A DNA stretch of 64,000 nt, taken from assembly GCA_046314355.1 (NCBI GenBank), contig JBKBWQ010000001.1, positions 992,001-1,056,000 on the forward strand, given 5' to 3'. This document shows positions 2,732-58,301 of this stretch, in pieces. The DNA is from Candidatus Altimarinota bacterium. GTDB taxonomy: Bacteria; Patescibacteriota; Gracilibacteria; 1-14-2-50-48-13. Numbering within the stretch: the stretch's first letter is position 1; each line of letters begins with the position of its first letter. The notes under the pieces were generated by a model. That model was given only the letters and a program-made list of their open reading frames with translations, was not told the DNA's origin and did not search any database. The position numbers and the translations under genes are program-made.

Positions 2732-2764
2732 ATTATTCTTTTAAAATTAAGTATATACGAGTAA

Positions 2765-3019
2765 TTATTTTACAACTTCGACAAGCTCCCATCTCTTGAG
2801 CTTGCTTAATGGTCGAGTCTCTTTAATTACAACAACCTGTCCAGAAGCACATTCATTATTCTCGTCGTGAGCATAAAACTTCTTTGAAATCTTGTATCGT
2901 TTCTGATACTTAGGATGTACCTTGTAGGTATCTACCTTAACTACGATAGTTTTATCCATCTTAGTAGAAAGTACTACTCCTTTTTTAGTTCTAATTTGTG
3001 GTGCCTGGTTCTGTGTCAT
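2765..3019 (-). CDS. rpsQ: 30S ribosomal protein uS17
   Basis: [22 protein letters not shown]; ATG at 3019 preferred over the TTG at 3034. Confidence 0.96.
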
Positions 3020-3051
3020 AGTGACTTGTCGCAAAAAATGTAAGTGTAAAA

Positions 3052-3456
3052 TTATTCTGTAAGGAACTTTGTCTGAAGAGGAAGCTTATGAGAAGCTAGT
3101 CTAAACGCCTCTCGGGCAGTAGCTTCATCAACACCGTCAATTTCAAAAATGATTTTTCCTGGTTTTACTGCTGCTCTATAGAACTCTACAGAACCCTTTC
3201 CTGATCCTTGCGGAGTCTCTGCTGCTTTCTTAGTAAAAGGACGATCTGGAAAAATTCTAATCCAGATTTTACCACCTCTTTTAAGATATCTTGTCATAGT
3301 TCGTCGTGCAGCCTCAAGCTGACGAGAGCTAATATATCCTCTTGTTGTAGCCTTAAGAGCGAATGATCCGAAACTTATAGTACTTCCTCTATTTGCAAGT
3401 CCCTTTAATCTTCCTCGTTGTGCTTTACGATATTTAGTTTTTTTCGGTGCTAACAT
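3052..3456 (-). CDS. rplP: 50S ribosomal protein uL16
   Basis: [28 protein letters not shown]. Confidence 0.98.
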
Positions 3457-3533: not shown

Positions 3534-4193
3534 TTAAGCTTCATTAGAAACGGTCTGTGCTTTTTTCTTAAACTTTTCTCCCTTATAGATCCATACCTTG
3601 ATTCCGATTGCTCCATATGTAGTATGTGCAGCCACATGCGCGAAATCAATATCTGCTCGGAATGTATGAAGTGGGATATTTCCATCTTTGAAGAACTCTT
3701 TTCGTGCGATTTCTGCTCCATTGAGTCTTCCACCTGCTTTGATCTTAATTCCAATTGCTCCAGCCTCTCTACTCTTTTCAATAGCTGCCTTTACTGCTCT
3801 TCGATATGGGATTCTTTTCTCAATCTGCTGAGCAATAGATGCTGCTACTAACTCTGCATCAAGTTCAGGTTTTTTAATTTCCTTAATATTGATAGTGAAG
3901 ACTTTGTTAAACTTTGTCTGTAGAGCAATTCGAAGTTTATCAATATTATCTCCTTTTTTACCAATGATCATTCCTGGTTTAGCAGAGAATACATTGACGA
4001 CGATACTTTGAAGAGATCTTTCTATTTCAACCTTGGAAACTCCGCAGTTTTTCAAAATAGTTTTAACGAGTTTCTTAATTTGGATGTCATCATGAAGGAA
4101 CTGAGCAAAAGTTGCTTTTGGAGCATACCAACTTGATCCCCAAGTTCTCGTGATACCAAGTCTAATTGAATGTGGATTAACTTTCTGACCCAT
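3534..4193 (-). CDS. rpsC: 30S ribosomal protein uS3
   Basis: MGQKVNP, GRLNGAEIAR, PLHTFRADID, GIKVWI. Confidence 0.98.
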   Translation of the reverse strand: MGQKVNPHSIRLGITRTWGSSWYAPKATFAQFLHDDIQIKKLVKTILKNCGVSKVEIERSLQSIVVNVFSAKPGMIIGKKGDNIDKLRIALQTKFNKVFTINIKEIKKPELDAELVAASIAQQIEKRIPYRRAVKAAIEKSREAGAIGIKIKAGGRLNGAEIARKEFFKDGNIPLHTFRADIDFAHVAAHTTYGAIGIKVWIYKGEKFKKKAQTVSNEA

Positions 4194-33628: not shown

Positions 33629-33714
33629 GTAGTATGAGATTGATTTGATGTACTCTCATTATACAAAAAAGCATTCCTATCAAAAGGAAAAAGAGAAGAA
33701 AACATTAAAAGATT

Positions 33715-33776
33715 AAAAAATAAGAATTAGGGAAATATCCTAATTCTTATTTCTTAATTCCTATTTCCTAATTCTT
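33715..33776 (-). terminator. Heptamer-repeat hairpin terminator
   Basis: AAGAATTAGG/CCTAATTCTT stem followed by ATTTTTT on the minus strand; five AWTTCYT repeats at 33742-33776. Confidence 0.6.
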
Positions 33777-34592
33777 TTATCCCAAGTATCCTTTTTCCTT
33801 TAAATTCAAATAATGTACTTTTGCTTTTTCATTATATGGCTCAATATCAAGAATTCTTTCAAATACTTTTGCCGCAAGACTATTTGCATCTGTATCAAGA
33901 TAACCTTCACCTAATGCAAATAGGTATTTTGTATTCCGTGTATCAAAACGTACAGCGTGCTCAAATGCATCTATAGCTTCACCGACACTTCCCATCTGCA
34001 GCAGCAATGCTCCAAGCTGGTAGTATCTTGCTGCATTATGCGGATCTCTTTTTATAGCTTCTTTATAAGCTCTTACTGCCTGATCATAATTCTCCTGTGC
34101 TTCTAATACTTTTGCAAGATTTCCATAAATAGATGGATCCTGTACTTTCATTTCCACAAGATGAATATAGATACTCTCTGCTTTGGTATACTTTTTCCTT
34201 TTCATATACACAAACGCAAGCAGGCTATTTACTTCTTCATCGTCAGCATCAAAGGCAAGTGCCTCCACAAGCATTTTCTCTGCATTCTCAAAATCATTAT
34301 TTGAAAGTAGCATTTCCACTTTTCTCAAGATCTTTTGAATCTCCACATGATCATCAGGAGTTACCACATGCTGATCAATATACTCATCTTCTTCATCATC
34401 TATCACAGCTTCTTTTCTTTCAAGAAGCGTTAGTATTTTACTTTTAAATTCTCTAAAAATATGCCTAGAGTCTTCACGAAGTTGTCTAAATTTCCAGATC
34501 TCTTTTATTTTCCATCCTCCTACACTTAAAATTCCTAAAAAAGAAAAGAATGCAAGAATAAGATCAAGCTTAACGAGAATTCCTATACCCAT
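33777..34592 (-). CDS. Membrane-anchored TPR protein
   Basis: N-terminal hydrophobic helix; repeated TPR-type LA/LG...A...A...DP patterns. Confidence 0.85.
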   Translation of the reverse strand: MGIGILVKLDLILAFFSFLGILSVGGWKIKEIWKFRQLREDSRHIFREFKSKILTLLERKEAVIDDEEDEYIDQHVVTPDDHVEIQKILRKVEMLLSNNDFENAEKMLVEALAFDADDEEVNSLLAFVYMKRKKYTKAESIYIHLVEMKVQDPSIYGNLAKVLEAQENYDQAVRAYKEAIKRDPHNAARYYQLGALLLQMGSVGEAIDAFEHAVRFDTRNTKYLFALGEGYLDTDANSLAAKVFERILDIEPYNEKAKVHYLNLKEKGYLG

Positions 34593-34624
34593 GTAACAAT
34601 CGATAAGAAAACAAAATACTCTTA

Positions 34625-35944
34625 TTATTCGTCACTCTCAGACGCCTCCTCTATCATACCTTGAAAATCTTTTGTATCAAGATGTTCAGGTCCGATAAGC
34701 TCGACAAGATGCTCGACTATACTGTCTAACGGCATAATTTCCTGGGTACCTTTTTTCATATCCCGAACGATTATCTTTTTCTCATGCACCTCCATCTGTC
34801 CCATCACAAGGGCATATTTTACATCAATCTTCCCAGCACTCTCAAGCTGTGAGCGGATGCTATCCTTTCCAAGAGCTCCTACTGTTTTTATACCGGCTTT
34901 ACGGAGTTCAGATACGAGTTTTAGTGCAATACGTTTTGCATCCTCACCAAGCTGCACCATAAATACATGAGCTTTGTCCTTTGAAGGAACACGGATATGA
35001 ATCTCTTTCATAAGTTCCGTTACTCTCTCCATTCCAGCAGCAAATCCTACAGCAGGTGTATCTGCACCTCCCATATCTTTGATAAGATTATCATATCTAC
35101 CTCCTCCTCCAAGCTCTATCTCTCTATCTTCTCTTTCCACATAAAATTCAAATATCAGACCAGTATAGTAGAGAAAATCTCTAAGCATGAATGGATCTTC
35201 CTCAAAGGAAATCTCAAGCGTAGTAAGGTATTCCTTCACTTTTTCATAATGCTGTTTGGAATTCTTTGAAAGGAACTGACTCATTTTAGGTGCAAGGTTT
35301 GCAAGGATTTTACAGTCCTCTTCCGTACATTCAATAAGCATCATTGGGGATCTTTCAAAACGTTTTACACATTTTTCACAGAGAGATCTTTCTTTTCCTG
35401 CATAGAAATTTCTAAGAGCTTCCTCATAGGGGATTCTATCCTCTTTGGTTCCAACTGAATTGATACGAAGTTTTACACCTTTTAGTCCCAGATCTTCAAA
35501 TATTCTTTTACACATTTCAATAAGCTGTGCATCAAGAGCAGGGTCCTGCTCACCCAAAAGTTCAAATCCGAACTGATAGAACTGTCTTAGAGAATTATCA
35601 GCAACATCTCTTCTCCATGATGGTTCGATATAATAGTATTCTACAGGTTTTGGAAGCTCCTGCATGTTATGTTCAATATATGCTCTCGCTATTCCAGATC
35701 TCATATTAGATCTTAGGTAGAGAGTTTCAGGACCATCTATTTTAAATAAATGTTCAGCGCACTCCATTTGCAGAGTACCACATGATGAAAAAATCATGCT
35801 CTCATGCTCTAACGCAGGCACACTAATTCTTTTAAATCCTGAACGTCTTCCGTTATAACGAATGACTTTTTTGATAAACGTAAAATATTCATGATCTTCA
35901 GGTAAAAGATCATGCATTCCCGCTACTCCTTGAAAATCAGACAT
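34625..35944 (-). CDS. hisS: Histidyl-tRNA synthetase homolog with altered motifs
   Basis: GMHDLLP, RQFYQFGFE, GGGRYD, GFAAGMER and an anticodon-binding domain are present; RPEGT and RGLDYY are altered; ATG at 35944. Confidence 0.75.
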   Translation of the reverse strand: MSDFQGVAGMHDLLPEDHEYFTFIKKVIRYNGRRSGFKRISVPALEHESMIFSSCGTLQMECAEHLFKIDGPETLYLRSNMRSGIARAYIEHNMQELPKPVEYYYIEPSWRRDVADNSLRQFYQFGFELLGEQDPALDAQLIEMCKRIFEDLGLKGVKLRINSVGTKEDRIPYEEALRNFYAGKERSLCEKCVKRFERSPMMLIECTEEDCKILANLAPKMSQFLSKNSKQHYEKVKEYLTTLEISFEEDPFMLRDFLYYTGLIFEFYVEREDREIELGGGGRYDNLIKDMGGADTPAVGFAAGMERVTELMKEIHIRVPSKDKAHVFMVQLGEDAKRIALKLVSELRKAGIKTVGALGKDSIRSQLESAGKIDVKYALVMGQMEVHEKKIIVRDMKKGTQEIMPLDSIVEHLVELIGPEHLDTKDFQGMIEEASESDE

Positions 35945-36159
35945 ACGTAAATTTTTATTAAGCAATGCATTCTAGGAGTAAAAATAGCTCCTGTACTCAT
36001 TATACCTTTTTTCCGCAAAAAAGCAACGCCGACAATAGTAAAAAAAGAGAAAAATGCTTATTTGCGTATGCATTCCTTATGAGTCAATTCAAAGTATACA
36101 GGAGGCGTTTTACTTCACCATAAAAATGGCTATCATACACCTGATTTATAAGAGCTTAC

Positions 36160-37089
36160 ATGTTGTCTATGATTTCAGTTAAAAACATTTCCAAGTGGTA
36201 TGGATCGACTCAAGCGCTCAAAGACATATCATTTGAAGTCAAAAAAGGAGAAATAGTAGGATTACTCGGTCCAAATGGAGCAGGAAAATCCACCACTATG
36301 AAACTTCTCACAGGATATATGTTTCCAACAGAGGGAGATATCACTATCAATGGGGAAAAAACCTCAGAAAATTCCTTGGAAACAAGAGCAATGATAGGAT
36401 ATCTGCCTGAGAACAATCCTCTTTATATGGATTTTACAGTAGAAGAGACATTACTCTTTCATGCATCCATGAGAGAATTAAAAGGAAAAAAGCTCACTCA
36501 AGCTATTCGAAAAACAGTCAGAAGATGCGGACTGGAAGATGTATTCTATAGTCCTGTCCACACTCTTTCAAAAGGATATAGACAAAGAGTGGGGCTTGCA
36601 ACGGCCATACTCCACGAACCTAAGATTTTAATTTTAGATGAACCTACATCAGGATTAGATCCAAGACAGATTATTGAAATTCGTGAATTGCTTCAGGAGC
36701 TTGGAAAGGAACACACAATTATTTTTTCTACCCATATCATGCAGGAGGTAGAGGCTGTTTGTAATAGAATCATTATTATTAACGAAGGTATGATTGTTGC
36801 AGAAGGAACCCCGGAGACATTAGGACAAAATAAAGAGGGGTTTACTACTTTGAGTCTGAAGACAACACTCTCAGCTGAGGATGCGCAGAATGAATTTGAG
36901 AAAGAATATACAGTTATTGAATCAAAGAGACTCCCTGACAAAACAACAGAAATTATTCTTCAAATAGAAAATGATATTGAGACTCGTCAGACACTTCTCA
37001 AATTTATTGTCAAAAACAAGATTCCTATGCTTGCACTAGTCCCGCAGGAAAGTAATCTTGAGAAAGTATTTCTGCAGCTTACAAAATAA
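36160..37089 (+). CDS. ABC transporter ATPase (GldA-like)
   Basis: GPNGAGKST, LSKGYRQR, LDEPT, STH. Confidence 0.93.
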   Translation: MLSMISVKNISKWYGSTQALKDISFEVKKGEIVGLLGPNGAGKSTTMKLLTGYMFPTEGDITINGEKTSENSLETRAMIGYLPENNPLYMDFTVEETLLFHASMRELKGKKLTQAIRKTVRRCGLEDVFYSPVHTLSKGYRQRVGLATAILHEPKILILDEPTSGLDPRQIIEIRELLQELGKEHTIIFSTHIMQEVEAVCNRIIIINEGMIVAEGTPETLGQNKEGFTTLSLKTTLSAEDAQNEFEKEYTVIESKRLPDKTTEIILQIENDIETRQTLLKFIVKNKIPMLALVPQESNLEKVFLQLTK

Positions 37090-37100
37090 TATATTCATCT

Positions 37101-37754
37101 ATGTTTACTACATTATTCATAAAAGAACTGAGGCATTACTTCAATTCTCCGATAGCATACGTATTCTTGATAGCTTTCTTTGCCATTGGAGGATGGTTTT
37201 TTGTGTATCCTCTTTTTGTCAACAATCAAGCGTCGCTATCCCAATTCTTTGAACCCCTTCCATTTCTCTTAGTTTTTTTTGCTCCAGCTCTCTCAATGAG
37301 ACTTTTCTCTGAGGAACGAAGACAAGGTACACTTGAGACACTAGTCACATTACCAGTTTCAGATAGTACGATTGTTTTAAGTAAATTTTTTGGGGCATTA
37401 GCCTTCATGGCAATTGCACTTATAGGATCTTTTCTATTTGCTGCTCTAGTCAGCATGCTGGGAAATCTTGAATGGGGAGTGGTTGTAGCAAGCTATATTG
37501 GAGCTCTCTTAATGACAGCCAGCATGCTCTCGTACGGAATGTTTATTTCGTCTCTGACTACAAACCAGATTATTGCTTTTATTATTAGCTCAATTATTTC
37601 CTTAGTGCTTGTCATGACAGGTATCTATGCAGAACATTACCAGTCTTTCATTAAAGGGATTATTGATCTGCGTGATGTAGTTTTCTTTGTATCCATCGTA
37701 ATTATGATGTGTCTTCTTACAAAGGAAAGCCTCGACTTACGCAACGTATCCTGA
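37101..37754 (+). CDS. ABC-2 permease (GldF-like)
   Basis: KEL..YFNSPIAY, MRLFSEERRQGTLETL.TLP, SSLTTNQIIA. Confidence 0.88.
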   Translation: MFTTLFIKELRHYFNSPIAYVFLIAFFAIGGWFFVYPLFVNNQASLSQFFEPLPFLLVFFAPALSMRLFSEERRQGTLETLVTLPVSDSTIVLSKFFGALAFMAIALIGSFLFAALVSMLGNLEWGVVVASYIGALLMTASMLSYGMFISSLTTNQIIAFIISSIISLVLVMTGIYAEHYQSFIKGIIDLRDVVFFVSIVIMMCLLTKESLDLRNVS

Positions 37755-37771
37755 TTTTTACTACTGTTTAA

Positions 37772-39322
37772 TTGATATTTATGAAGACACGACCACGTAA
37801 AATATTCTTTGCATCCATTGGCACACTTCTTGTACTAGGAATTCTTATAGCTTTAAATATCGTACTCTCAAGCTCTCCTCTTCGGCTAGACCTCACTTCA
37901 AACAAAGTCTACACATTCTCTGCAATCACAAAAGATGCTCTTTCGGGCTTAGATGATCCTATAATTATCAAAGCATATATTACAGATAATGTACCTGATG
38001 AAAAAAAGGAGGATAAGAAATATTTAGAGAATTTACTTAAGGAATTTAAGGTCTACGGAAAAGGTAAAGTGCAGCTTGAATTCATAAATCCTAATGAGTC
38101 TACGGAGAAAGAGACCGAAGCACAGCAGGCAGGTATAACTCCTCTGCAGTTTAATAAAATCGAAAATGATTCTGTATCAATACAGCGAGGCTACTTAGGA
38201 GTAAGCATCCAGTATGGAGATAAAAAAGAACTCATACCATATATTACTAGTACGAATGGACTTGAATACGATCTTACAAGCCGTATAAGAAAAGTAACAA
38301 ACAAGAACTTACCTGTAGTCGGTATTATACAGGGGTATGGTGCACCTGAGCTATCTGGCTATACACAGGGAGCATACACGATGCAGATGCTTACCCAGGA
38401 GCTTAACAAATCCTATAAAGTACTTCCAGTTGATCTTGCTTCAGCAAACGAAATAGATCCTAGCATTGGTACTCTTATTATTGGAGGCATAAAAGAAGCA
38501 GTTCCAGCAGAAAAGATAGCACTCATTAAAAAGTTTTCAGACAATGGCGGAAACATTCTTGTCAGTCAGAGCAGTGTTGGTATTGATATTTCCCAAGGAA
38601 TTACGGCAAAAGAAATACCGCTTGAGACTCTTAACTCTTTCCTCTCTTCCGAAGGCATTACAATCTCAAAGAATCTTCTTGCGGACAGATCTGCAAAGCA
38701 AATCGGCGTAAGTACACAAAATGGAACTCTTATCATGCAGCAGCTTGTCTCATTCCCTCTCTTACCGCTTATTAAAGATATCACTCCACATCTTATTACG
38801 GAGAAACTCACAGCGGTAACATTACCATTTGCAAGTCCGCTTACTATTACAAATAATACTGGTATTACAACTCTGCTGTATTCAAGCAAAAACAGCAGTG
38901 AGTATACAAATATTAATGTCATCAATCCTATCGAACCGGATTCATTTTTCAACCAGGAATCTGCATCAGGAAGCAAATTTCCTATTGCTCTAATAAAAGA
39001 AAGCCAAAAGAATAATAAAACGGCTTCACTGATCGTAGTAGGAAGCAGCGGATGTATCATAGACCAGCTCCTTCAAGCTTCACAGGATACGACTTGTCTA
39101 AAACTGATTCTCAATGCTGTAGACACTACTCTGCAGGATGCTCGACTGATTGAGGTAAGAAACAAAGGTTTTGAAACAAGATTACTTAGAGAAACAACAT
39201 CTGAAGAGAAACTACTATTTAAAACAATTGCTCTTGGACTACCCTCCTTCCTCACTATCTTAGGAGGACTTCTATACTTAAGATTCAGATATAGTAGAAT
39301 GAAGAAAAATTATTTAAAATAA
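37772..39322 (+). CDS. GldG-like ABC auxiliary (GIFT-domain) protein
   Basis: RLDLTSNKVYTFS, EYDLTSRI, N- and C-terminal TM helices. Confidence 0.88.
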   Translation: MIFMKTRPRKIFFASIGTLLVLGILIALNIVLSSSPLRLDLTSNKVYTFSAITKDALSGLDDPIIIKAYITDNVPDEKKEDKKYLENLLKEFKVYGKGKVQLEFINPNESTEKETEAQQAGITPLQFNKIENDSVSIQRGYLGVSIQYGDKKELIPYITSTNGLEYDLTSRIRKVTNKNLPVVGIIQGYGAPELSGYTQGAYTMQMLTQELNKSYKVLPVDLASANEIDPSIGTLIIGGIKEAVPAEKIALIKKFSDNGGNILVSQSSVGIDISQGITAKEIPLETLNSFLSSEGITISKNLLADRSAKQIGVSTQNGTLIMQQLVSFPLLPLIKDITPHLITEKLTAVTLPFASPLTITNNTGITTLLYSSKNSSEYTNINVINPIEPDSFFNQESASGSKFPIALIKESQKNNKTASLIVVGSSGCIIDQLLQASQDTTCLKLILNAVDTTLQDARLIEVRNKGFETRLLRETTSEEKLLFKTIALGLPSFLTILGGLLYLRFRYSRMKKNYLK

Positions 39323-53030: not shown

Positions 53031-54569
53031 ATGCCTGCTCGTATTCATTCAGTCGCTGTTGTAGGGCTTCATTCAGAAGGAGTCGAGGTAGAAGTAGACG
53101 TGTCCAGACAAATGCCGGCATTCTCTATCGTCGGACTTCCAGACACAGCTGTGCAGGAATCCAGAGAACGCGTCCGAAGTGCTACAAAAAATTCAGGAAA
53201 TGCTTTTCCAAATAAACGCATTGTTGTAAATCTTGCCCCTGCAGATGTCAGAAAGCAAGGTCCATCCTTTGATCTCCCTATTGCCATAGGTATATTGGTC
53301 GCATCAGAACAGATAGTTCAAGAAGAAGTAAATAATATTCTTTTTGCGGGAGAGTTAGCTCTCAATGGAGAGCTAAGACATATCAATGGTGCTTTATCTA
53401 TAGCGCTCTATGGAAAAAGAAAAGGGTTTAAAGCAGTAATACTGCCTATGATGAATACAAAAGAAGCAGCCCTTATAGAAGGTATTACTATCCTGGGAGC
53501 AAATAACTTAGGAGAAGTAATACAGTATCTTACAGGAGATTCTGAAGCACTCCGTCCGGTAACTTACGATTTAGAAGAACTTAAAAAAGAAGCGCTGCCT
53601 TACGTTTACCAGACAGATATGAAGGATATCCATGGTCAGCAGCAAGCAAAAAGAGCATTAGAGATAGCCGCAGCTGGAGGACATAATATTCTTTTCAACG
53701 GTCCCCCCGGATCAGGAAAGACACTGCTTGCAAAAGCACTACAGTCTATCCTCCCGCCCATGACATTAGAAGAATCTATCGACTTAACATGTATATATTC
53801 CAATGCAGGACTACTTCAAAAAAATATATCCTTAGTTTTCGAAAGACCATTTAGAAGTGTCCACCATACAGCTTCAGGTATATCCATCATTGGCGGAGGT
53901 AAATTCCCTAAACCAGGAGAGATCTCGCTTGCCCATAAAGGAGTACTATTTATGGATGAACTCGCTGAATTTCCAAAGGAAGTACTTGAACTCCTCAGAC
54001 AACCGCTGGAAGATAGAGTAATATCGGTATCCCGAGTACAAGGATCACATACCTTCCCTGCGAGCTTTATGCTCGTCGCAGCTATGAATCCATGTCCCTG
54101 CGGCTACGCCACAGATCCGGAAAAAGAATGTACCTGCAGCGAAATGCAGATAATGAAATATCAGAAGAAAATATCAGGACCTTTTATGGACCGAATTGAT
54201 ATGTTCCTGGAAGTACCCAGATTATCTTTTCAGGATCTACAGAACAAAGAATATGTGCCGGAATCCTCTGAGGCAGTACGAAAGAGAGTAGAAGCAGCTC
54301 GGATAGCACAGCAAAAGCGCTTAAAAAAACATACTCTTAAATCTTATACTACCAACGCAGAGATGAACAACGAGGCAGTACGAAAATACTGCACTCTCTC
54401 AAGTGAAGGAACAAAGCTCATAAAGAAAGCAGTTACCGAGCTCAGGCTATCCACAAGATCCTACTTCCGCTTATTAAAACTTGCGAGAACTATAGCTGAT
54501 CTTGAAGGAAATGATGTCATCGAAGTACAGCATATCGCTGAAGCACTACAGTATAGGAGAAGAGAGTAA
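53031..54569 (+). CDS. comM: ComM/YifB Mg-chelatase-like AAA+ ATPase
   Basis: VGLPD.AV.ESRERV, NLAPAD, GPPGSGKT, PGEISLAH.GVLF.DE, AMNPCPCG. Confidence 0.95.
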   Translation: MPARIHSVAVVGLHSEGVEVEVDVSRQMPAFSIVGLPDTAVQESRERVRSATKNSGNAFPNKRIVVNLAPADVRKQGPSFDLPIAIGILVASEQIVQEEVNNILFAGELALNGELRHINGALSIALYGKRKGFKAVILPMMNTKEAALIEGITILGANNLGEVIQYLTGDSEALRPVTYDLEELKKEALPYVYQTDMKDIHGQQQAKRALEIAAAGGHNILFNGPPGSGKTLLAKALQSILPPMTLEESIDLTCIYSNAGLLQKNISLVFERPFRSVHHTASGISIIGGGKFPKPGEISLAHKGVLFMDELAEFPKEVLELLRQPLEDRVISVSRVQGSHTFPASFMLVAAMNPCPCGYATDPEKECTCSEMQIMKYQKKISGPFMDRIDMFLEVPRLSFQDLQNKEYVPESSEAVRKRVEAARIAQQKRLKKHTLKSYTTNAEMNNEAVRKYCTLSSEGTKLIKKAVTELRLSTRSYFRLLKLARTIADLEGNDVIEVQHIAEALQYRRRE

Positions 54570-56387
54570 CTACTTATAGTCTACTTCATTCAAAAACCAG
54601 ATAGCATCAACTGGAGAATGTAACTTTATTCTAAATTCAGTAAGATTCCCTTCACACTCAAAAGTAATCTTATGATCAGGATCCAAATACTTATCAAATG
54701 CTTTCTCAAGAGGTCGAATAATCTTGGTCATAAAATCACTCTTACTAACGGAGTAGGCTGAAAGAGGCAGCTCTTTACTCTCTATCTGATGAGCCGGTGC
54801 TTTCATAAGAAGGGTAAGAACTTGTATTGCATATACTTGGCTAGGGAGATCGTTGGAGTTAAGTTTGTTACCATTAAGAATAATTTTCTCAGTCACCGTG
54901 TTGATAAGTACTTTTACTTTCTCTAACTCAGCTTTGTCTTCCACTAGCTTTTTCTCATGGTAGTTACTAATCCATGTGTGATTGGAATAATTTTTAAGCC
55001 AATCACTGTAATGCTTCTTCTCACGGTACATTTCTAGTTTTGCTCCTTCGGTACCAATGCCGTCGAGGAGGGAGTCGTAGTCAAGAGATACATTATGGTG
55101 TTTATGAAAATCAGCGTTTATAAAATCCTCATAAAAATAAGGGAAAGAGCTCTTTGAAATAGCGTATAATAGTTTTGCATCACCGGTAATTCCTTTTTCC
55201 TGTAAAAAATATATATTGTCCTCACTAGACAAATCTTCAAAAAATTTATTAAATGTTTTTTCAAACTTACTAAATTTATATGACAAATCATCATCGTATA
55301 TCACATTAAACATATCTCTTAGCTGTTTAAGAGCAATAATTAACTCTTTAATATTATTTGCATCAAAGTTTTCAACAAACCTTTTAATAATATTTGTTGA
55401 ATAGAAATTGATGATGGATAACTTTGATTCTAATATCTCATTTGGTTTATCAACTGAAGAGAAAAATTTATTATTTTCAAATAGTGAAGCATTATCGATA
55501 ATAAACTCATTTATGTATTTTACTTTTTTTTGAACACTGAATCCATATTCTTCATAGTGAACTTGTTTTTTAAATCCCGGATATACGATACCAAATCTAA
55601 TTAACCACTTGGCTTTTTCATTTAAGGCAGTATCGAAAGTATTTCCCCAATATTGTATTTTATCAATTAAATTATACTGTTCTTTATTTAAATAATGCGG
55701 AAACTTAGTATAAGTATCATATTCATTTATACCTATTCGTTTTTCAGTCATATACATAACAGGAAAATTTGATGACACTAAACAATTAAATACTTCACCT
55801 CCACACGCAGGCAGGGAAGTAGAATATTCTAGTAAAAGAAATATCTTCCATAATAATCTAAACACTAAATTAAATAGTGTTTCATTTTTATACGAATCAT
55901 ATTTATTAGATATTAAATCAAAAAATGATTTATCTATAATACTGAATGCCAAAAGAATACAAAGTCCTAATGATGTATATATAGGACATACATCTAACCA
56001 TTCATTTTCTGATAGAATATAGATATCAAGTCCTTCATTATTAAAGTTATCTGAGTAATTCTCTTTCAGAAAATTCGTTAATCGTTTTAATCCTTCTGGA
56101 TCTAAAAATGCATCAATCGGAGTTTCGATGATCTTTCCTCTATGCTGAGAATATGTTTTAAAAGACTTATATCTTATTTCATTAAGTCCATTTTTTCTTA
56201 CACCTACATATGTTCTTAATGGTAGTTTTTGTATTAAAGAAATACCTCCAAAATGAACAGAGAATCCTCCTGCCCAAGCAAAAAGAATTGGTGCTGAAAC
56301 TACAATATCGCATTGTGCAAAAAATTCTTCAAATTCTAATAAAAATTCTTTCTTTATCGATTCAGAATTATTTTTCAGTCGTTCCAT
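54570..56387 (-). CDS. Hypothetical protein with GHMP-kinase-like N-terminus and possible C-terminal winged helix
   Basis: VSAP..FAWAG..SV.FGG resembles the GHMP N-terminal motif; mostly low GC. Confidence 0.6.
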   Translation of the reverse strand: MERLKNNSESIKKEFLLEFEEFFAQCDIVVSAPILFAWAGGFSVHFGGISLIQKLPLRTYVGVRKNGLNEIRYKSFKTYSQHRGKIIETPIDAFLDPEGLKRLTNFLKENYSDNFNNEGLDIYILSENEWLDVCPIYTSLGLCILLAFSIIDKSFFDLISNKYDSYKNETLFNLVFRLLWKIFLLLEYSTSLPACGGEVFNCLVSSNFPVMYMTEKRIGINEYDTYTKFPHYLNKEQYNLIDKIQYWGNTFDTALNEKAKWLIRFGIVYPGFKKQVHYEEYGFSVQKKVKYINEFIIDNASLFENNKFFSSVDKPNEILESKLSIINFYSTNIIKRFVENFDANNIKELIIALKQLRDMFNVIYDDDLSYKFSKFEKTFNKFFEDLSSEDNIYFLQEKGITGDAKLLYAISKSSFPYFYEDFINADFHKHHNVSLDYDSLLDGIGTEGAKLEMYREKKHYSDWLKNYSNHTWISNYHEKKLVEDKAELEKVKVLINTVTEKIILNGNKLNSNDLPSQVYAIQVLTLLMKAPAHQIESKELPLSAYSVSKSDFMTKIIRPLEKAFDKYLDPDHKITFECEGNLTEFRIKLHSPVDAIWFLNEVDYK

Positions 56388-56536
56388 TATTTATAAGAAG
56401 CATCTATTTAATCAAAATCATACAACAAAAAACAATATTTGCAATACTATGATTATATGTAAATATATTAAATAACTTCTTTAATATACTCTGCATCAGA
56501 ATGCTAATTCAAGCTTGTTGTAAAATAATTACAACA

Positions 56537-57256
56537 CTAAAGAGTATTAACTAATTCAAAAATATATCTTTTTTGATTATTTTGAGCATGATAATCAATA
56601 AATTCTTGAGGAATAAAAGATTGTTTTTCACAAATCTCTTTTAATTGATTTTTATTTGGCAAATAAAGTAAATGTTTATTATCTTTACCCCATATAAATT
56701 CTAATACACCTAAATTATCTAATTCGATTCGAAATTTACTAGCATAATCAAGTATGGCATCCATATATTCTTCTTGAAAAGGCAAATCACCAATAATAAT
56801 TTTCTTTTTATCAAATTTATTTATTTCTGTTAATAGATACTCTAAGCCTTCTTTAGAACCTACCTCTGACAATACAGTCCAGTTCATAAAAACAAATAAT
56901 TGTTCTCCTACAAATTTATGAAAATCCGTATTAAAAAAACTTTCATGTTTTATCTCAATACTTGAATTTAATTTAAACTCATTTTTTAATTTCTCAAAAT
57001 AGCCATCTGCAATATCAATAGCTACTGAACCTTTTGGCTTAAAAAGTTTATCTAATTCGTTCACAAAACGTCCTGTTCCAGCTCCTAAGTGTAAAAAAAT
57101 ACTATTTTCAATATTATTATACTTTTTAATTTTTTCACTCATTATTTTTAATTCTTCAGAGCTATTTGTGACATTTTCTATTCTCTCTGCTAAAGCTGCT
57201 TTGTCATAAAACTCCTTCGCTCTCCTAGCCTGTTCTTCAAATCTCTCTTTCTCCAT
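56537..57256 (-). CDS. Class I SAM-dependent methyltransferase
   Basis: FYD, motif I FLHLGAGTGR, VAIDIA; very low GC. Confidence 0.85.
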   Translation of the reverse strand: MEKERFEEQARRAKEFYDKAALAERIENVTNSSEELKIMSEKIKKYNNIENSIFLHLGAGTGRFVNELDKLFKPKGSVAIDIADGYFEKLKNEFKLNSSIEIKHESFFNTDFHKFVGEQLFVFMNWTVLSEVGSKEGLEYLLTEINKFDKKKIIIGDLPFQEEYMDAILDYASKFRIELDNLGVLEFIWGKDNKHLLYLPNKNQLKEICEKQSFIPQEFIDYHAQNNQKRYIFELVNTL

Positions 57257-57338
57257 ACATCACAAAAAAATTAGTTTGATATTGTTTATACCTATTCTCT
57301 ATAAACATCAATAGAAAATGATTTTTTATTTATTCAAG

Positions 57339-58301
57339 TTATCCAATTTCTCTCAAAACTCTCACTCTGTCTTCTACTGCTGGATGGGTAGAGAAGAGAT
57401 TCTGGAATATACTAGTCCTGCTCCCATGATCGCCTAATGGATTCTCGATACACATCTGTGCCACACTTCTATTTTCTATTACTTCTATTCTCGCATCTCC
57501 AGATATCTTCTGTAATGCCGTTATAAGATGTTCACCGGTCTTTGTAAGTTCTACGGATCCTGCGTCAGCAAGGTACTCTCTCTTACGTGATATAGCGAGC
57601 TGTACGATGGTTGTGAATAAGAATCCAAGAATAAATACTACTAACTTAATAGCTAAGATAATAAGCATGGCATTTCCTCCATTTTTATTATCTGAAGAGA
57701 TATTGATATGTGAACGTAAGAATACTTCAGAAACTGTCTGAATTATGCCTACAAATATAATAGCTACTACCATTAACCTAATATCTCTATTCATAATGTG
57801 TGTCAGCTCATGAGCAGCGACTGCTTCTAATTCATCTTTGTTTAATGCATTTAATATTCCTCTTGAAAAGGATATGAGAGCATTTTTTGGGGAGAGTCCT
57901 GATGCAAAGGCATTCATGGATTCATCTTCAATAATATAGAGCTTAGGCATAGGTAGCCCTCTGGAAATACAGAGTCTCTCAACAATATCGTAAATCATCG
58001 GATTATCTTTTCTATCTAGCGGCTTCGACTGAGTCATGGCAAGTATCATTTTCTGATGAAACAGCCATGCTATGAGAAACCATACGGCAACACCGCTGAA
58101 GATATATCCTATAAATGAATACAGCATCTCCCATGCACTCATGGGTGCGGACTCAAGCGGTACTCCTTCTGCACTGACAATTCCAGTAAAGATGAGAAAT
58201 ACCAGCAAACATAAAATACATGGAAATAATGCCAGTAGAATAAGAGAGCGGATATTATTACTCCAGATAAAAGACTGGAGACCAAGTATTTTTTGAGCCA
58301 T
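57339..58301 (-). CDS. htpX: M48 zinc metalloprotease HtpX
   Basis: NAFASG, HELTH, SRKREYLAD, ALQKI, FSTHP; next to lemA. Confidence 0.93.
   Translation of the reverse strand: MAQKILGLQSFIWSNNIRSLILLALFPCILCLLVFLIFTGIVSAEGVPLESAPMSAWEMLYSFIGYIFSGVAVWFLIAWLFHQKMILAMTQSKPLDRKDNPMIYDIVERLCISRGLPMPKLYIIEDESMNAFASGLSPKNALISFSRGILNALNKDELEAVAAHELTHIMNRDIRLMVVAIIFVGIIQTVSEVFLRSHINISSDNKNGGNAMLIILAIKLVVFILGFLFTTIVQLAISRKREYLADAGSVELTKTGEHLITALQKISGDARIEVIENRSVAQMCIENPLGDHGSRTSIFQNLFSTHPAVEDRVRVLREIG

Follow-up and report, generated by a model that had tools for sequence, protein, structure and literature searches.

A degenerate histidyl-tRNA synthetase copy in Gracilibacteria, probably a displaced ancestral hisS kept as a tRNA-His-binding pseudo-synthetase

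Why would a bacterium that encodes a canonical histidyl-tRNA synthetase (HisRS) also keep a full-length copy whose catalytic residues have been replaced? The question is raised by a stretch of 64,000 nucleotides from a Candidatus Altimarinota bacterium (contig JBKBWQ010000001.1, positions 992,001 to 1,056,000; hereafter the window, whose own numbering is used below), which encodes a HisRS-like paralog that we call pseudo-HisRS. A preliminary description of the window had reported a HisRS paralog with a remodeled catalytic pocket and no frameshift, and one intact open reading frame with such a pocket is what we find. Our preferred explanation, held with moderate confidence, is that pseudo-HisRS represents the displaced ancestral hisS, retained as a non-aminoacylating, probably dimeric pseudo-synthetase that binds tRNA-His.

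The degenerate hisS copy and its canonical counterpart

The gene and its parts are as follows.

34625..35944, minus strand: pseudo-HisRS (HisRS-like paralog, P0001), a single open reading frame of 439 amino acids plus stop
35021..35920, minus strand: class II catalytic-core-like domain, residues 9–308 (Pfam PF13393 tRNA-synt_His, 133 bits), with degenerate histidine, adenylate and acceptor motifs
35312..35380, minus strand: four-cysteine cluster of the insertion domain (C189, C192, C206, C211), a C-x2-C ... C-x4-C pattern
34700..34966, minus strand: anticodon-binding domain, residues 327–415 (Pfam PF03129 HGTP_anticodon, 46.8 bits), which holds E385, R394 and Q401
34628..34684, minus strand: acidic C-terminal tail (LDTKDF..MIEEASESDE), specific to and conserved in the clade of degenerate relatives described below

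The reading frame contains 0 internal stops and 0 frameshifts, and the closest solved structure, S. aureus HisRS (1qe0), aligns with its product from end to end (E 5.2e-68). A second assembly, from run X1 (possibly the source sample), covers positions 33700-36000 at a depth of 19.4 with 0 differences, and no sequence variants were seen at the locus in the run X1 reads. X1 is the only run that contains the locus: runs X2 and X3 gave no coverage of it, and no RNA run is listed for it. Since this assembly is identical, and since the pocket sequence LRSNMR is common to four relatives at 93, 87, 87 and 74% identity to pseudo-HisRS, the assembly error that the preliminary description had allowed for is excluded.

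To define which residues have changed, we aligned pseudo-HisRS and its 120 top-ranking relatives from the database, then scored each protein at 14 catalytic or acceptor positions: the Glu of KEMY, the Glu and Thr of PEGT, six positions in motif 2, the Gln and Glu of RQFxQFGxE, the Arg and last Tyr of RGLDYY, and the motif-3 Arg. The 121 proteins separate cleanly, with 101 keeping 13–14 of the positions, 20 keeping 2–8, and none lying between. Pseudo-HisRS keeps 8/14 and belongs to the lower group. Examined as a histidine--tRNA ligase of the TIGR00442 (hisS equivalog) family, it has the expected domains and a score of 324.6 bits, above the cut-off of 286.75, but these eight residues fall short of the conserved set.

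In the alignment to the 101 canonical HisRS of the same class, every segment change listed in the preliminary description is present: TDIVEKEMY has become (T)LQMECAEHLF, L(K/R)PEGT has become LRSNMR, the motif 2 sequence FRYDRPQKGRYRQF has become WRRDVADNSLRQF and is 1 residue shorter, and RGLDYY has become RDFLYY. The segments said there to be kept, namely QFGFE, motif 3 (GFAAGMER) and the four insertion cysteines, are indeed kept, as is GGGGRYD. In Thermus thermophilus (Tt) numbering, the replacements are Glu64 to His, Glu81 to Asn, Thr83 to Arg, Arg115 to Val, Gln117 to Asp, and Arg120 to Ser or a gap; retained are the motif-2 Arg, Asp114, Arg122, Gln126, Glu130, the HisA Arg, Tyr-Tyr, GGGG, Gly-Phe, the motif-3 Arg and the four cysteines.

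Glu81 is counted among the functional residues of HisRS, and the arginines of class II enzymes act on ATP. For T. thermophilus HisRS, PMC4357726 describes Glu64 and Glu114 as essential to aminoacylation, Arg120 as invariant, the imidazole as held by Thr83, Glu130, Gly304 and Phe305, and the G-1 nucleotide of the tRNA as held by Arg7, Arg115 and Arg122. The “intact tRNA-binding architecture” of the preliminary description thus stands for the anticodon domain and not for the acceptor end, where the positions equivalent to Tt Arg7, Arg115, Gln117 and Arg120 are substituted.

The N terminus itself may be shorter than annotated. An alternative TTG start lies at 35965, 21 nt upstream and worth 7 more residues, and no Shine-Dalgarno-like AAGGAG was found before either this TTG or the ATG at 35944. 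An AAGGAG does occur at 35931-35926 on the minus strand, 8 nt ahead of an in-frame ATG at 35917 (Met10). The real start may be Met10, in which case the protein would lack the N-terminal part that contacts G-1 in true HisRS.

Catalytic positions drift further among the other members of the degenerate clade. At the motif-2 Arg, proteins P0001 to P0005 carry R, R, R, K and A; the HisA Arg (position 12 of 14) is missing from other members of the clade; and the motif-3 Arg is gone in some copies from other families of the class (G021, G024, G025, G035 and G037). Pocket sequences in the clade read RSNMR, RPEYA, RPYYL, RPMHT and RPSST, with no new consensus, and the motif-2 loop is variable in both sequence and length. 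The four insertion cysteines are present in 101/101 canonical relatives and in 6/20 clade members, including pseudo-HisRS; in the other 14/20 all four are replaced together, mostly by S, D, S and T, which suggests a metal site that only a working enzyme would need.

The preliminary description had proposed a search for a second, canonical hisS, and the genome (G000, 1.69 Mb, 98.3% complete) does contain one. It lies outside the window, at G000:C1:421667-423073 (L001:1459-2868, minus strand), encodes 469 amino acids, scores 364.1 bits against the TIGR00442 cut-off, and has intact motifs of the LRYDLT / WRADRPQKGRYREF / ARGISYY / AGGRYD kind. Its named best matches are all from Bacteroidota (Prevotella, Phocaeicola, Xylanibacter and Flavobacteriales). 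Because it shares 51–53% identity with these proteins and 27–37% with the second HisRS of relatives in its own class, it was likely acquired horizontally, and it presumably does the charging in G000. The working HisRS of the family members G002 and G003 is of another type (MRPEMT / WRYERPQRGRLREHWQ) and is ~27% identical to the G000 enzyme. The working HisRS therefore differs among genera of one family, and the degenerate copy has outlived at least one change of working enzyme.

The genome has one tRNA-His gene, with a GUG anticodon and an encoded G-1, C73 and CCA. HisG (PF01634) gave 0 matches in G000, with a control search positive in 14/14 genomes, and no Thg1 was found, with a control search positive in only 1/14 genomes. 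A missing stringent factor was considered and rejected, RelA/SpoT being present.

Inverted constraint on the catalytic core and anticodon domain

We compared the positional entropy of 17 non-redundant degenerate-clade sequences with that of the 101 canonical proteins. Entropy in the clade is 0.5–1.3 bits above the canonical level in residues 41–120 and 241–320, which span the histidine loops, motif 2, HisA and motif 3, and is equal to or below it in residues 21–40 (the motif-1 helix, FTFIKKVVRYHARR), 121–180 and 321–439 (the anticodon domain and tail). In alignment A1 the motif-1 segment is invariant across the degenerate clade and the anticodon domain has many invariant columns, for example GQMEV.EKKII.R.M.KGTQE. 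Motif 1 is the dimer interface in HisRS, and pseudo-HisRS would probably dimerize as well.

The nonsynonymous divergence (dN) follows the same division. In five pairs from the window's family, dN is 0.68–0.82 in the relaxed core segments versus 0.23–0.27 in the anticodon domain, whereas the core dN of eight canonical pairs is 0.6–1.1 times that of the anticodon domain. The constraint in the clade is therefore inverted. By the Nei-Gojobori method, the same five pairs have proportions of synonymous differences (pS) of 0.74–0.82, which is saturated, and of nonsynonymous differences (pN) of 0.33–0.35; the pseudo-HisRS frame is therefore under purifying selection, with the saturation of pS in all family pairs limiting the dN/dS analysis to bounds and domain-wise dN.

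The best-preserved residues include the equivalents of the anticodon readers. In Tt HisRS, according to PMC4357726, Glu386-388 recognize G34, Gln404 recognizes U35 and Lys397 recognizes G36. The positions mapped to Tt Glu388, Lys397 and Gln404 are E385, R394 and Q401 of pseudo-HisRS, and this E-R-Q triad is found in 20/20 degenerate-clade members and 100/101 canonical relatives. Among 13 degenerate copies of the class, E is kept in 13, R in 13 and Q in 11. The clade has in addition acquired constraint of its own in the anticodon domain and C-terminal tail, and not in the pocket: K389, K390, R364, Q383 and M384 are fixed beside the anticodon-reading helix, along with the acidic tail, which is unlike the NLDKYSPGELLY-like C-terminal tails of canonical relatives.

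Recurrence of degenerate copies and their gene surroundings

We surveyed 41 genomes of the Gracilibacteria/Peregrinibacteria class, to which named database relatives assign the organism, for HisRS genes. A type-1 (bacterial-type) copy, the type to which pseudo-HisRS belongs, is present in 38/41, and a second HisRS of another type in 19/41. Where both occur (16 genomes), the type-1 copy keeps ≤8/14 positions in 12 and ≥12/14 in four (G014, G028, G033 and G040), while 21 of the 22 genomes with a type-1 copy only have one that scores 13–14. Counted by copy, 12 of the 13 type-1 proteins at ≤8/14 reside in genomes with a second HisRS, as opposed to 4 of the 25 at ≥12/14. Degenerate orthologs occur in all four genera of the window's family at ~52% identity, and the clade is supported in a quick tree by a Shimodaira-Hasegawa-like approximate likelihood ratio test (SH-aLRT) value of 98%.

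Three genomes of the survey that are 98–99% complete (G010, G013 and G030) have only a non-type-1 HisRS, with no type-1 copy at E ≤ 1e-10. Thus, complete loss of the old gene also occurs.

To look outside the class, we queried 1.84 billion representatives with a clade profile and listed the top 150. The clade itself forms one representative at 716 bits, and the next match scores 454 bits. Among the listed representatives, 144 proteins have ≤2 gaps at the key positions; 99 of these keep ≥11/14 and 38 keep ≤8/14, and 36/37 low scorers with an anticodon domain keep E-R/K-Q. One cluster among 10 low-scoring representatives is named Candidatus Peregrinibacteria.

An even draw of 301 Patescibacteria genomes provided a broader sample, in which 35 genomes had ≥2 matches to the hisS model. 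Fifteen of them, which belong to families other than those of the class, were examined, and nine (G054, G080, G092, G113, G165, G171, G181, G225 and G253) encode a canonical non-type-1 HisRS together with a full-length degenerate copy derived from type 1, in which the anticodon motif is intact. The other six comprise two genomes with two canonical enzymes, three with single genes split at contig ends, and one with an unrelated partial match.

The surroundings of pseudo-HisRS contain two further features on the same strand.

33777..34592, minus strand: a 271-aa tetratricopeptide repeat (TPR) protein with an N-terminal hydrophobic helix (Pfam TPR families), co-oriented with pseudo-HisRS and 32 nt downstream of it
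33712..33758, minus strand: a terminator-like hairpin past the TPR gene, with a 20-pair stem and T-rich tail (consensus scan, a pattern match only)

This hairpin may end a two-gene transcript of pseudo-HisRS and the TPR gene. The next gene after it is radA, and the order hisS-like, TPR, radA is found in 4/4 genomes of the family. The co-orientation with the TPR gene had been singled out in the preliminary description, but the case for the TPR protein as a specific partner is weakened by its distribution: it is present in 36/41 genomes of the class, lies behind the canonical hisS in G016, and does not adjoin the degenerate copies of other families, which have different neighbors. The adjacency is therefore an inherited mark of the ancestral hisS locus and does not indicate a functional pair. 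Docking of the acidic C-terminal tail onto the TPR domain would be one conceivable contact between the two proteins. When gene surroundings were compared, no neighbor was common to all lineages of degenerate copies.

In five other Patescibacteria families the degenerate gene lies among signal peptidase S26, LytR_cpsA_psr and YqeY-domain genes, and in three of these five a HIT-family gene is directly downstream; locus L082 (G054:C1:231280-235464), with genes at 823-1425, 2749-3087 and 3677-4117, all on the plus strand, is an example. YqeY and HIT proteins are both linked to tRNA and aminoacyl-adenylate chemistry.

Searches for regulatory RNA gave a fold z-score of -0.65 for the 215-nt region upstream of pseudo-HisRS and no Rfam families in the window besides one tRNA. 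Divergent from pseudo-HisRS, at 36160-39322 on the plus strand, is an ordinary-looking operon of an ABC ATPase, an ABC-2 permease and an ABC_transp_aux/DUF7088 gene. At window positions 54001-58000 the GC content is 0.30–0.335, compared with ~0.37 elsewhere in the window.

Competing explanations and comparison with known systems

The course of events that we favor begins with a bacterial-type hisS inherited vertically in the Patescibacteria lineage (the Gracilibacteria/Peregrinibacteria class). A HisRS gained by horizontal transfer, of a Bacteroidota-like type in G000, would then have assumed the charging of tRNA-His, and the old copy would have been retained as a full-length, probably dimeric protein in which aminoacylation is gone or very poor. 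Strong purifying selection would have continued to act on the anticodon domain, including the three side chains mapped to the readers of G34, U35 and G36. Most likely, the protein would still bind tRNA-His specifically by the GUG anticodon loop but leave it uncharged, with sensing, buffering or handing over tRNA-His as candidate outputs. Among the three roles suggested in the preliminary description, the tRNA sensor fits best, with the anticodon domain and mapped GUG contacts kept and the catalytic positions drifting.

Several observations weigh against this reconstruction. The type-1 copy of G001 keeps 7/14 positions and no second HisRS was found beside it, in a genome that is 85% complete. 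The surveyed genomes are kin and cannot be counted as independent cases, and the cluster of 12 degenerate copies in the quick tree may reflect long-branch attraction. Residues were mapped to the Tt enzyme indirectly, from motif spacing and from alignments with the HisRS of S. aureus and E. coli, and the top-150 list, obtained with a degenerate-clade profile, is biased toward similar anticodon domains. Pseudo-HisRS is also, judged by its residues, the least decayed copy of its clade; since many active-site residues are kept and its score exceeds the TIGR00442 cut-off, it may still bind ATP or histidine, or have weak activity.

These retained features give some substance to the leading alternative, an unlikely one in our judgment, in which pseudo-HisRS is a functional HisRS isoenzyme (e.g., condition-specific or inhibitor-resistant) whose active site is unusual and which shares the charging of tRNA-His. 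The complete domain architecture, the TIGR00442 score, and the presence of the motif-2 and motif-3 Arg, Gln126, Glu130, the HisA Arg, Tyr-Tyr, GGGG and the four cysteines would all suit such an enzyme. However, the Glu64 equivalent is a His, the equivalents of Arg120, Arg115, Gln117, Thr83 and Glu81 are replaced, and the catalytic segments evolve at ~3 times the rate of the anticodon domain, opposite to the pattern in true HisRS. Moreover, the motif-2 Arg has given way to K in a relative at 87% identity and to A in one at 74%, a change that counts equally against a ligase with new specificity as raised in the preliminary description. That proposal, under which the protein would ligate or adenylate with a changed specificity for the amino acid or the acceptor, much as EpmA or the amino acid:carrier-protein ligases do, is to us the least probable of all those considered. 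In its favor, the pocket residues are replaced and not deleted, the five closest sequences all share LRSNMR, and this copy keeps the ATP-binding arginines, yet pocket and motif-2 residues vary from member to member. The lack of a new pocket or motif-2 consensus and the loss of class II arginines in many clade members argue against a new catalytic specificity, and the gained constraint lies elsewhere, in the anticodon domain and tail.

A role through protein partners ranks behind the isoenzyme and is likewise improbable. Pseudo-HisRS would here be a non-catalytic subunit or regulator, either paired with the working HisRS as a heterodimer or attached to some other enzyme as an allosteric subunit in the manner of HisZ, possibly one that still senses histidine. 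HisZ provides a precedent (PMC9437257), the motif-1 segment and the new acidic C-terminal tail are conserved in the clade, and this copy keeps the imidazole-pocket Glu130, Gly-Phe, GGGG and Tyr-Tyr. The dead heterodimer subunit of the preliminary description is nevertheless disfavored, the motif-1 segment of the paralog being invariant while the working HisRS of G000 and that of G002 and G003 are of such distant types. A HisZ role proper can be rejected, given the negative HisG search of this 98.3%-complete genome, the presence of an anticodon domain and a score on TIGR00443 (hisZ) of 137.9 bits against a cut-off of 271.65. A partner-based role is also at odds with the lack of a common neighbor and leaves the kept anticodon-reading residues unexplained. 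More doubtful still is a functionless relic on its way to loss. Catalytic residues have been lost in different combinations by lineage, as under relaxed selection, and G010, G013 and G030 have a second-type HisRS without a type-1 copy, which is what such decay would leave behind. The frames are nonetheless open and full-length in G000, G002 and G003 at ~52% identity (in G001 the match contains one TAA close to its end), and full-length in at least nine other families with genomes of 0.6–2 Mb. The low pN relative to saturated pS, an anticodon domain more conserved than in working HisRS, and the fixed residues of the clade also stand against decay. Because degenerate copies recur in many reduced genomes, where useless genes normally vanish, it is very likely that they have some function.

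A displaced hisS kept as a tRNA-His-binding protein would have consequences beyond this locus. Degenerate copies pass the hisS model or receive the hisS name, as does the degenerate relative P0014, named histidine--tRNA ligase by NCBI, and a record of “hisS present” may thus indicate the wrong gene and mislead marker-gene or metabolic reconstructions of Patescibacteria. The copies also offer a natural experiment on the fate of a displaced synthetase after horizontal replacement. More tentatively, and with considerable doubt on our part, we suggest a widespread Patescibacteria family of free-standing HisRS-derived pseudo-synthetases, arising repeatedly upon takeover by a foreign HisRS and acting in histidine-auxotrophic, host-dependent cells as a tRNA-His-specific sensor, buffer or hand-over factor, a bacterial counterpart of the GCN2 domain.

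Among known systems, canonical HisRS (TIGR00442; 1qe0, 1kmm, 1adj/4rdx) has the same length and domain order as pseudo-HisRS (core, Cys insertion, HGTP) and the same anticodon-contact residues (E, R/K, Q), but in pseudo-HisRS 6/14 catalytic or acceptor positions are replaced and the catalytic segments are relaxed. HisZ, the regulatory subunit of the short-form ATP phosphoribosyltransferase, works with HisG and lacks an anticodon domain. It is a bacterial HisRS paralog without aminoacylation (PMC9437257; PMC5388404), and pseudo-HisRS, likewise a bacterial paralog, has probably lost this activity too; unlike in HisZ, the anticodon domain of pseudo-HisRS is its best-conserved part, no HisG accompanies it in the searched genome, and the hisZ model scores far under its cut-off. 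A 2022 review table lists HisZ as the sole entry of the HisRS-paralog kind (PMC9437257), and in the open full-text literature, subscription journals and supplements aside, we found no account of a full-length HisRS-like pseudoenzyme from bacteria that has an anticodon domain.

The closest functional analogy may be the HisRS-like pseudoenzyme domain of GCN2. According to PMC11363354, this domain keeps the core plus anticodon-domain architecture and GGRYD, diverges in the HisA motif and the adenylate-forming elements, and is proposed to interact with uncharged tRNA; it forms part of a kinase fusion, has lost the equivalents of Glu388, Lys397 and Gln404, and binds tRNA non-specifically. Pseudo-HisRS, with a HisRS fold predicted from its sequence, shares the diverged catalytic elements, but it is bacterial, free-standing (a stop-bounded frame) and not a member of the GCN2 group, and its E-R-Q triad is kept, a difference that suggests tRNA-His-specific binding. 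HisZ and the GCN2 HisRS domain are synthetase-like pseudoenzymes that illustrate the reuse of translation machinery, and pseudo-HisRS would add to them a free-standing bacterial form that keeps the anticodon reader rather than the amino-acid pocket.

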